Both the position numbers and the translations under genes were made by a program. From positions 4,024 to 68,023 of the forward strand of contig DATHSO010000080.1 in NCBI GenBank assembly GCA_035464095.1: a stretch of DNA of 64,000 nucleotides, in the 5' to 3' direction. Positions within the stretch are counted from its first letter, which is position 1, and the number at the start of each line of letters is the position of its first letter. The notes beneath the pieces are model-generated. The model saw only the letters and a list, made by a program, of their open reading frames with translations. It ran no database searches and was not told the DNA's origin. The DNA comes from Candidatus Methylomirabilota bacterium (GTDB lineage: Bacteria; Acidobacteriota; Thermoanaerobaculia; Thermoanaerobaculales; Sulfomarinibacteraceae). This document shows positions 1,258-35,763 of this stretch, piece by piece.

Positions 1258-4863
<3,606 letters not shown>

Positions 4864-13407: not shown

Positions 13408-14160
13408 TCATCCCGCGCCTTCCCGGAGGCTGTCGACGATCCCGACCAGCTCGGCCGGGTGCTCGATCCGGTGGTTCGGCACGACCTTCCAGCCCGCGCC
13501 GTCGCTTCCATCCCCGAAGTGGGCCGCCACCGACAGCACCCGGAGCTCGCGTCCGAGGGCGACCAGGTCTCGGTTGGCGTTGGCCGCGCACAGGATGTCG
13601 GCCTCGTGGTCGCCGACGAAGAGCACGGTGGCGGGCTCGGTGACCCCGATATCGTCGATCGCGCGCAGCAGACCGTCCGGGGCCGGCTTCTGGCGGTGCA
13701 TGGGCACCTCGGCGTAGCCGATGATGACCGCGAAGTAGCGGTCGACCCGGGCCGCCCTGAGAGCCTGGGCGATGATCGCCCGGTCGTTCTGGGACACCAC
13801 CGCCTGGGCGAGGTCCTTGAAGTGCTCGAGGGTCGGCGCGACGCCGTCGAAAAGCGGCACCGGGGTCGGGTCGTTGAGCTGGTACGGGGCCCAGCGCGAG
13901 GCCGCCTGGGCGCACTGCTCGCGGGTCAGGCCGAGGGCCGAGACGTAGAGCTCCTGCCAGTTGCTGACCCGGTTCCAGGCGGCGTGGTACGCCTCCACCG
14001 AGCTCAGGGCCGAGACCTCCTGCCACGTACGGCCGGTCATCTCCTCGACGATCCTGCGGTTGACGCTGAGGTTGCGCAGGCTCGTGTCGGCCATCGTGCC
14101 GTCGAAGTCCCAGAGAATCGCCCGCAGCGGGTAGCTCGTCTGCACCGCGACATTATGCAC
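13408..14160 (-). CDS. HAD-superfamily hydrolase (phosphoglycolate phosphatase-like)
   Basis: DxDGT motif (LWDFDGTMADT) and VGDHEAD motif. The ORF maximum (to 14277) runs into a palindromic repeat, so the start is placed at the GTG at 14160. Start is uncertain. Confidence 0.6.
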   Translation of the reverse strand: MHNVAVQTSYPLRAILWDFDGTMADTSLRNLSVNRRIVEEMTGRTWQEVSALSSVEAYHAAWNRVSNWQELYVSALGLTREQCAQAASRWAPYQLNDPTPVPLFDGVAPTLEHFKDLAQAVVSQNDRAIIAQALRAARVDRYFAVIIGYAEVPMHRQKPAPDGLLRAIDDIGVTEPATVLFVGDHEADILCAANANRDLVALGRELRVLSVAAHFGDGSDGAGWKVVPNHRIEHPAELVGIVDSLREGAG

Positions 14161-14244
14161 GGCCCGGATGCGTCCCGGTGTGATGCCGGACCTTCTCGTA
14201 GCACGCGGCGCCACCGTCCCCAACTTGACGAACTCACCCGGAGC

Positions 14245-14332
14245 GTGCCAGGTACGGCGACTTGACAAACTCGCCACGAACCCTGTGAGTGCAGCATCAC
14301 TGCCGAGTTTGTCAAGTCGCGGTACCTGGCAC
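14245..14332. repeat. 88-bp palindromic element (GTGCCAGGTACGGCGACTTGACAAACT arms)
   Basis: 28-nt arms (27/28 complementary) around a 32-nt loop. The left arm is identical to that of the copy at 35276. A partial extra arm (caacttgacgaactc) lies at 14221-14235. Confidence 0.8.
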
Positions 14333-34653: not shown

Positions 34654-35223
34654 TCAGTGGATCTCGTCCACGCCCTGCTTGGCGCGCTCGATCTGGGCCC
34701 GGATCGTGGGCCCGGCCCAGCTCACCGGCCCGCGGGCCTGCCAGGCCAGGAAGCCCTCCGGGTCGAAGACCAGGGTCTCGGGGATCCGACGCACCCCGCA
34801 CAGGTCGCCGGTCCTGGCGTTCTCGTCGAGGTAGAGGAACGCCTCTGGGAGCTCGGCCGCGCGGGCCGCCTCCCTGACGACCTCCCACGACGGCGCCTGG
34901 GCGATGAGCAGGACCTCGACGTCCTCGTCGTCCGCCGTCCGGACGGCGAAGTCGGCCGCCGCCCGCTGCTCGCCGAGGTCCGGCCGCTGCGGGTCGAACC
35001 AGTGCAGCACCAGGACCTTGCCCGGCCGGCCCACGAGGTTGCGGCGGTCGCCGTCGGCGGCCTCGAGCCACAGGAAGCCGCCGGCGTTGAGCTTGGCGAT
35101 GGCGTGGTCGTGGTCCGCGTGGCGGGGCGGGGTCAGGGCGAAGAACATGTTGTAACCGACGACGGCCGCAGCGACGACGAGGGCCGCGCCGAGAATCAGG
35201 CGGTTGCGGGTGGTCGCGTTCAT
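34654..35223 (-). CDS. membrane-anchored TlpA/redoxin-like thioredoxin-fold protein lacking the CxxC motif
   Basis: ORF trimmed to the ATG at 35223 (MNATTRNRLILGAALVVAAAVV). GKVLVLHWFDPQRPDLGEQ sits where TlpA-type proteins have WATWCxPC. Confidence 0.55.
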   Translation of the reverse strand: MNATTRNRLILGAALVVAAAVVGYNMFFALTPPRHADHDHAIAKLNAGGFLWLEAADGDRRNLVGRPGKVLVLHWFDPQRPDLGEQRAAADFAVRTADDEDVEVLLIAQAPSWEVVREAARAAELPEAFLYLDENARTGDLCGVRRIPETLVFDPEGFLAWQARGPVSWAGPTIRAQIERAKQGVDEIH

Positions 35224-35251
35224 GGACGCGAGAATACCAGATGACCCCCCT

Positions 35252-35396
35252 CCACTTGACAAACTCTTCCACAGCGTGCCAGGTACGGCGACTTGACAAA
35301 CTGAGCATGGACGCAGCGGCAACAGGCGGCGCGGGGAGTTTGTCAAGTTGCCGTACCTGGCACCGTCAGGGGGGAGTTCGTCAAGTCGCGGTGGTG
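35252..35396. repeat. 88-bp palindromic element (35276-35363) nested between partial arms of a second copy
   Basis: Inner arms gtgccaggtacggcgacttgacaaact / agtttgtcaagttgccgtacctggcac (26/27) around a 34-nt loop. Outer half-arms ccacttgacaaactc (35252-66) and gagttcgtcaagtcgcggtgg (35374-94). Confidence 0.8.
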
Positions 35397-35415
35397 TGCC
35401 GCGGGGTCCGGGGTG

Positions 35416-35763
35416 TCAGCTCGGGATGACGGCGTTGCGGTGGTCGACGAGGACGATGGTGGGCCGGTGGCCGGCGCCCTCGGTCTCGTCGACGATCCCG
35501 TAGCAGGCGATGATGACGACGTCGCCGGGCTGGACGAGCCGGGCGGCGGCGCCGTTGACGCAGATCTCGCCCTCACCGCCGAGGATGACGTAGGTGGCGA
35601 AGCGGGCGCCGGTGGTGCAGCTGTAGACCTCGACCCGCTCGAACTCGTGGATGCCGGCGGCGCGGCACAGCTCGCGGTCGACGGTGATGGAGCCCTCGTA
35701 GGCGAGGTTGGCGTCGGTCACCGTGGCGCGGTGGATCTTGGACTTGAGGACGGTGATCTGCAT
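35416..35763 (-). CDS. panD: aspartate 1-decarboxylase
   Basis: [29 protein letters not shown] with the GS self-processing site. Confidence 0.92.

Follow-up and report, generated by a model that had tools for sequence, protein, structure and literature searches.

A REPIN-like family of hairpin-forming terminal repeats in an uncultured Acidobacteriota genome and its copy between panD and tlpA

The 145-base structure located between panD and the tlpA-like gene represents a single copy of a small mobile repeat that forms hairpins. It belongs to a family of REPIN-like doublets of terminal inverted repeats (TIRs) of the RAYT/TIRYT system and is thus of a kind already known. The locus very probably represents a head-to-tail cluster of four repeat units, two of which point to the right, followed by the spacer and two units pointing to the left. 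The analysis was based on the window, i.e. the complete stretch of 64,000 nucleotides under study, which lies on contig C80, and on the genome to which it belongs, a 4.42-Mb Acidobacteriota MAG with 217 contigs and 71% G+C.

The intergenic region comprises 192 nt (35224-35415, minus strand). Upstream of the element lies panD, encoding aspartate 1-decarboxylase (35416-35763, minus strand), and downstream the gene for a TlpA-like protein of 189 aa (34654-35223, minus strand), with a TGGTATTCT motif 7 nt before its ATG. The central part is formed by an inner inverted repeat with arms of 27 nt (35276-35302 and 35337-35363), which are 96% complementary and separated by 34 nt, resulting in an 88-bp doublet. 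The inner left arm (GTGCCAGGTACGGCGACTTGACAAACT, plus strand) matches the family consensus perfectly and, as stated in an earlier note on this DNA, has the same sequence as the arm at 14245-14271; the inner right arm (minus strand) shows one mismatch to the consensus. The loop between them (35303-35336, unstranded) is a diverged family spacer in the orientation opposite to that of the 14245 copy. An outer inverted repeat of 21 nt with 81% complementarity (35246-35266 and 35374-35394) surrounds the doublet and includes partial arms, the ACTTGACRAACTC boxes, at 35254-35266 and 35374-35386. The left outer box ACTTGACAAACTC (35254-35266, plus strand) is a truncated extra repeat unit offset by 37 nt from the inner box, and the 15 nt to its left show no similarity to the arm part GTGCCAGGTACGGCG (12 mismatches in 15 positions). 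It is connected to the inner arm by the linker ttccacagc (35267-35275, plus strand), the final 6 nt of which represent the conserved 5′ extension C-R-S-A-S-S of that arm. On the other side, the linker cgtcaggggg (35364-35373, unstranded) is followed by the right outer truncated unit GAGTTCGTCAAGTCGCGGT (35374-35392, minus strand), consisting of the box with a G variant and 6 nt of the arm (CGCGGT, 35387-35392). The flanks had been interpreted as the inner arm parts of another copy; both outer boxes are indeed present, but only the right one retains arm sequence beyond the box.

Within the window, the 12-nt core ACTTGACAAACT was detected seven times with at most one mismatch compared to 0.02 expected occurrences, and four matches to the arm were obtained with none expected. 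The second copy (14223-14332, plus strand) is flanked by genes for an M56 peptidase and a HAD hydrolase and comprises arms at 14245-14271 and 14306-14332, a spacer at 14272-14305 and an outer box at 14223-14235, which is present on the left side only and again at an offset of 37 nt. Since this copy also carries an outer box, outer arms are not special to the locus upstream of tlpA. At both loci, translation of the arm generates the peptide LSSRRTWHA in spurious 5′ extensions of the adjacent open reading frames, confirming that this peptide is an artefact as previously assumed; the true genes beside the two copies encode 189 and 247-250 aa, matching their homologues. An Rfam scan of the window revealed tRNA only and no other match.

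Searching the genome with the 27-nt arm yielded 66 matches at up to three mismatches, 42 of them perfect, compared to none for the reversed-pattern control. These matches are distributed over 37 loci, many of them at contig ends. Twenty-one plus/minus arm pairs were identified, 19 of which enclose a spacer of exactly 34 nt. The copies adjoin unrelated genes and avoid ORFs of high GC3 except for the stop-to-stop 5′ extensions of downstream genes; some are located inside a repeated gene. Scanning JGI metagenomes for the arm gave no match. An integron attC site was rejected as a candidate, as the copies are scattered singly across at least 30 contigs and the arm does not contain the core (GTTRRRY). 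Similarly, the box does not represent an independent target or operator site, since only 8 of the 103 boxes genome-wide are located away from arms, most of them in decayed elements.

At least six repeat clusters are found at the same point in one subfamily of a gene encoding a four-helix-bundle protein of ~135 aa (PF05635), with clusters at C12:9195-9535, C140:32767-33166, C136:2413-2750, C150:101686-101991, C2:1-300, C189:1-340 and C168:26940-27039. The clusters separate the N-terminal part of the protein (...AAGIAVGLALKAPVG) from SEIVGSTEPGHGRAGKDRAYHFRV...HPSP*. These clusters have ~270 nt of flank in common as well as nearly identical spacers; either gene and doublet were duplicated together, or the element preferentially targets this point. 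A segment of the intact gene, GTCGGGGACCAGGTGATCCGGTCGGCC, appears to resemble the outer half of the arm. Genome-wide, at least 40 matches to the 23S_rRNA_IVP/four-helix-bundle family were obtained (e.g. C134:22075-22374, C205:2861-3163 and C28:132-434), mostly open frames of 135 aa and many at contig ends, and this family constitutes a second, separate multi-copy element in the genome. At the outer ends of several copies of the arm family, the outermost arm part and adjacent bases are tandemly duplicated over ~12-21 nt (C140:30110-30166, C136:2360-2412, C29:100-135, C100:38-70 and C53:14245-14275), for example as three successive cggacggtgcc. At C105:43380-43570, a copy occupies the centre of a larger palindrome with 45-nt flanks that are near-perfect inverted repeats, its right arm consisting of the box only. 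A near-identical version of the C29 copy terminates a 1.6-kb contig (DATHSN010000266.1, positions 1525-1611) of a MAG labelled Acidimicrobiales; this contig is probably mis-binned and derived from a close relative of the acidobacterial host.

The 6 nt outside every arm follow the pattern C-R-S-A-S-S, with A at position -3 in 62 of 64 arms, regardless of whether a box precedes. Due to this conserved extension, the real unit is ~37 nt long and consists of the loosely conserved C-R-S-A-S-S, then GTGCCAGGTACGGCG and finally ACTTGACAAACT(C), so that an outer box followed by C and ~3 nt directly abuts the next unit. The arm starts with GTGCC. In classical REPs, each unit of 20-40 nt is an imperfect palindrome with an unpaired GTAG/CGTC tag at one end; the single arm described here is not self-complementary (-1.6 kcal/mol, z +0.2) and has neither a GTAG nor a CGTC tag, and the family is therefore not a classical REP.

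The loop upstream of tlpA had been considered unrelated to that of the 14245 copy. This was not confirmed, as the two loops are homologous but lie in opposite orientation: after reverse complementation, 19 of 34 positions are identical (p≈0.0005 against shuffles). With the loop at C118:16854, 22 of 34 positions are shared. Oriented accordingly, the spacers align to one diverged consensus, CGCCAnGAACC...GC.GC.TCGAnGACG, in which most columns are below 70% identity, and a young subfamily of ~7 copies has almost identical spacers. Compensatory changes keeping the spacer paired were not detected, the covariation measures being no better than those of shuffles, and only 2-3 spacer positions pair regularly. 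The idea that the spacer is a decayed inner pair of units was rejected, as no similarity was found.

The origin of the arm became evident from related genomes. In three genomes of the same genus (G001, G009 and G010), the sole two arm matches are in inverted orientation ~1.07 kb apart and surround an ORF of 335 aa, one arm being located ~60 nt upstream of the start and the other overlapping the stop. The deduced protein contains an HUH motif (SNHYHLL) and the tyrosine motif YIHLNP, and matches both PF01797 (Y1_Tnp) and the NCBIfam model NF047646 for the REP-associated tyrosine transposase, the latter with 93 bits at a cut-off of 80. Three further contigs encode homologues with 70-80% identity, and there the same 27-mer encloses the gene in the same arrangement. 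The arm is thus found inverted around a RAYT/TIRYT gene in at least six related genomes and contigs, and the doublet is consequently REPIN-like and made of the terminal repeats of the transposase. The earlier view of a multi-copy palindromic mobile element of the REP/MITE-like type, with conserved arms and a less conserved spacer, is supported. The tandem duplications at arm ends mentioned above are also present beside transposase genes of relatives (L032:2597-2625 and L065:1415-1436).

In the genome harbouring the doublets, a tblastn search of the assembly did not find the cognate transposase gene; the best matches were two other RAYT-like genes, 40% and 51% identical to it and flanked by different, non-amplified repeats. 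At the position of the cognate gene in the relatives, upstream of the leader of a DEAD-box helicase, no transposase is present in this genome. The gene may have been lost, may have moved, or may be unassembled, since a gene of 1.1 kb enclosed by repeated ends can easily go missing from a bin. Conversely, G001, G009 and G010, which hold the cognate gene, carry no doublets. One RAYT-like gene is distributed over two contigs that overlap by ~135 nt (C53:14328-14885 and C168:1-555), which represents an assembly break rather than a broken gene. The repeats flanking this gene (C53:14276 and C168:582), the 66-bp palindromes in metH (window positions 2967-3032 and also 2097-2162) and the arm family are three transposase-end repeat families that begin with GGTGCCAGG(T/C). 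Genome-wide, the 9-mer GGTGCCAGG is not over-represented (158 occurrences versus 158 of the reversed word) and is not claimed as a tag.

Mobility of the element was evaluated by comparing orthologous intergenic regions for empty sites, as had been suggested. Relatives are designated here by protein identity, and for the panD-tlpA site the syntenic contigs were found via TlpA homologues. In an 81% relative, represented by three contigs from three samples, the gap between panD and tlpA is 39 nt instead of 192 nt and contains neither doublet nor box. The corresponding gap between the M56 and HAD genes is 83 nt in a 75% relative compared to 190 nt in the window, again without doublet or box. As both orthologous sites are empty in relatives, the two copies in the window arrived by insertion, together with their outer boxes. 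The sequence CTGGTATYCT immediately before the tlpA ATG is retained in the 81% relative lacking the element, and likewise CATAAT before the start codon in the 75% relative. A 94% relative (L059), by contrast, has a gap of 192 nt with the same four-unit composite. Compared to this relative, none of 26 positions in the outer boxes and 1 of 54 in the arms are changed, versus 4 of 34 in the spacer; in the flanking genes, 8-13% of third codon positions differ. The few changes in arms and boxes in comparison to the spacer argue that arms and boxes, but not the spacer, are constrained or homogenised. Same-genus GTDB genomes do not contain an orthologous spacer, PanD being only ~60% identical and the gene order different, and the genes of more distant TlpA homologues (73-75%) do not have panD as a neighbour.

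The geometry of the composite was examined using 20 doublets with good arms and 24 outer boxes. Of the 20 doublets, 19 carry one or more additional boxes beyond the arms, and in 20 of 24 cases the box-to-box offset amounts to 37-38 nt. Boxes were found on the left of 15 doublets and on the right of 9, with 5 having both and 1 having neither; 14 of the 19 loci are thus one-sided. The presence of a left and a right box is not positively associated and, if anything, negatively (Fisher OR 0.125, p 0.13), and the side is not tied to spacer orientation (9 versus 5). Five of the 24 outer units are full arms.

These data argue against the earlier proposal of a palindrome inserted into the loop of a second one, which then lost its GTGCCAGGT ends. 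In that case, a younger doublet would have entered the single-stranded loop of an older panD-tlpA doublet, whose arms subsequently decayed at their outward ends. In favour of this model, outer boxes in inverted orientation enclose the inner doublet; a G at position 8 of the box is enriched in outer boxes (8 of 24 versus 3 of 40 inner boxes, p 0.017), fitting an older generation, and mismatches in the 15-nt outer part grade from 0 to 13 across the outer units, as expected from decay. However, the 34 nt of an old loop are not present: the outer and inner arms are separated by 9 and 10 nt at this locus and by ~20 nt in total at two-sided loci, with the final 6 nt of either linker being part of the inner unit. 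Moreover, the outer arms are not always two, the linkers of two-sided loci do not mirror each other, and the boxes remain within two mismatches whereas the neighbouring 15 nt have disappeared, a pattern that neutral decay does not produce. No intermediate state was observed either, as the 94% relative has the full composite and the 81% relative nothing. Insertion into a 34-nt loop is therefore not supported, and we consider nesting in this strict sense improbable. A modified form, in which a new doublet lands at a fixed point beside or inside an older unit and replaces most of its spacer, is possible, although its probability is low.

A cluster of four units, the reading that we prefer, explains the structure as follows. 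The inner units are complete and together with the 34-nt spacer form the 88-bp hairpin-forming doublet of REPIN type, and the outer units are 5′-truncated copies placed head-to-tail against them. Each unit corresponds to the terminal inverted repeat of a gene for an HUH tyrosine (Y1) transposase of the RAYT/TIRYT class, the doublet in effect representing the two ends of this gene with the gene itself replaced by 34 nt. During replication, the doublet would presumably fold as single-stranded DNA into a hairpin, and a Y1 transposase acting in trans would excise and re-insert it without target duplication, a chemistry that we infer for this family. The truncated outer units could derive from an asymmetric intermediate or from a tandem duplication in which the outer 15 nt decayed subsequently. 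For REPINs, asymmetric excision products have been reported (PMC3116915), which by analogy would suggest another origin for one-sided partial units. An origin of two-sided outer units as mirror copies by hairpin-templated repair was rejected, because the linkers are not complementary.

The nearly universal truncated extra unit might even be a direct footprint of insertion by a TIR-type Y1 transposase, although we regard this as rather unlikely. The argument derives from the box being positioned 37-38 nt from the inner box, being conserved while the outer half decays, and occurring on a random side with respect to the spacer. Such a footprint could arise from an asymmetric hairpin-with-tail intermediate or from pairing of the box with a complementary arm serving as guide or target. 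If true, it would provide a handle on the unsolved transposition mechanism of REPINs and TIRYTs.

A conserved, immobile regulatory array, with operator or promoter boxes for a host DNA-binding protein, is very improbable. The box does contain TTGACA, is repeated at regular spacing and is conserved between the host genome and the 94% relative. Nevertheless, the 75-81% relatives have no array at either orthologous site but retain the promoter-proximal motifs, the copies adjoin unrelated genes or lie within a repeated gene, scanning yielded no sigma-70-type promoter, and in relatives a transposase gene is situated between the arms. A classical MITE moved by a DDE transposase, with terminal inverted repeats and target-site duplications, would agree with the 27-nt terminal repeats, the small size and the many copies, but simple copies are not flanked by a direct repeat and the sole gene found between the arms encodes a Y1/HUH transposase instead of a DDE enzyme, leaving this explanation hardly tenable.

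Among the closest described systems are the REPINs with their RAYT in Pseudomonas fluorescens SBW25 (Bertels & Rainey 2011, PMC3116915) and the TIRtrons or TIRYTs (Di Nocera, De Gregorio & Rocco 2013, PMC3733652). Like the SBW25 REPINs, the elements consist of two inverted, highly conserved short repeats and a spacer that is fixed in length and less conserved, with a long predicted hairpin; tens of extragenic copies exist, clusters and partial units occur, and the repeat flanks a single-copy Y1 transposase gene. They differ from them in the single arm, which is not palindromic and has no GTAG tag, in the lack of detectable compensatory spacer changes, in the nearly universal truncated extra unit at a fixed 37-38-nt offset, and in the transposase gene, which was found in relatives and not in the genome holding the doublets. 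TIR-flanked RAYT-like genes (TIRYTs) have been described with TIR dimers and clusters, including a distinct acidobacterial group (PMC3733652). This corresponds to the situation found here, with a RAYT-like Y1 transposase of ~330 aa within long, non-palindromic terminal inverted repeats that are not REPs, one repeat overlapping the 3′ end of the gene, dimers and clusters of the repeat, and a host of the phylum Acidobacteriota; the likeness of the transposase is based on its length (~335 aa) and on the matches to the Y1_Tnp and RAYT models. In contrast to the known TIRYTs, which fall into four groups and whose acidobacterial group includes the ORF1552 TIR family of Koribacter versatilis, the repeat sequence differs, and the expansion (37 loci) and the gene were seen in different genomes. 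Enterobacterial BIMEs, which are clusters of REPs, resemble the locus in having regularly spaced units and composite extragenic structures between co-directional genes; their units, however, alternate in orientation, whereas outer and inner units on each side are arranged head-to-tail here. The IS200/IS605 elements (IS608, ISDra2) share the HUH/Y1 transposase family, the dependence on hairpins in single-stranded DNA and the lack of target duplication, but carry their own gene and differing left and right subterminal hairpins, in contrast to the gene-less symmetric doublet.

Insertion of the element adds a very stable predicted stem-loop to the panD-tlpA spacer, leaving the tlpA-proximal 30 nt untouched. 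Folded as RNA, the whole 192-nt spacer is predicted to form one long interrupted hairpin (-94.8 kcal/mol, z -6.4), its DNA strand folds likewise, and the 88-nt doublet cores fold at -52 to -72 kcal/mol. Scanning positions 35000-35600 for promoters and terminators revealed neither a U-tract terminator nor a sigma-70-type promoter. Classical REPs can attenuate read-through or stabilise a message, and by analogy the hairpin might do the former or stabilise the panD message. In both downstream genes, a -10-like motif precedes the start codon by 6-8 nt, namely TGGTATTCT in the case of ATG and CATAAT in the case of GTG (window positions 35224-35245 and 14152-14175), and is kept in relatives with and without the element. 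These motifs suggest leaderless or near-leaderless transcripts.

The family described here adds a well-populated REPIN-like family from an uncultured lineage of Acidobacteriota to the few described repeat families of the TIRYT type, and explains a source of assembly breaks and spurious ORF extensions in the MAG. The paired filled and empty sites, together with the orthologous filled site, can be used for measuring constraint. Two features bear on how populations of such repeats persist and move, namely the truncated extra unit at a fixed offset and the distribution of doublets and gene, the doublets being numerous in the genome in which no cognate transposase gene was found and lacking in those that carry it. 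So far, both features stay within known concepts.
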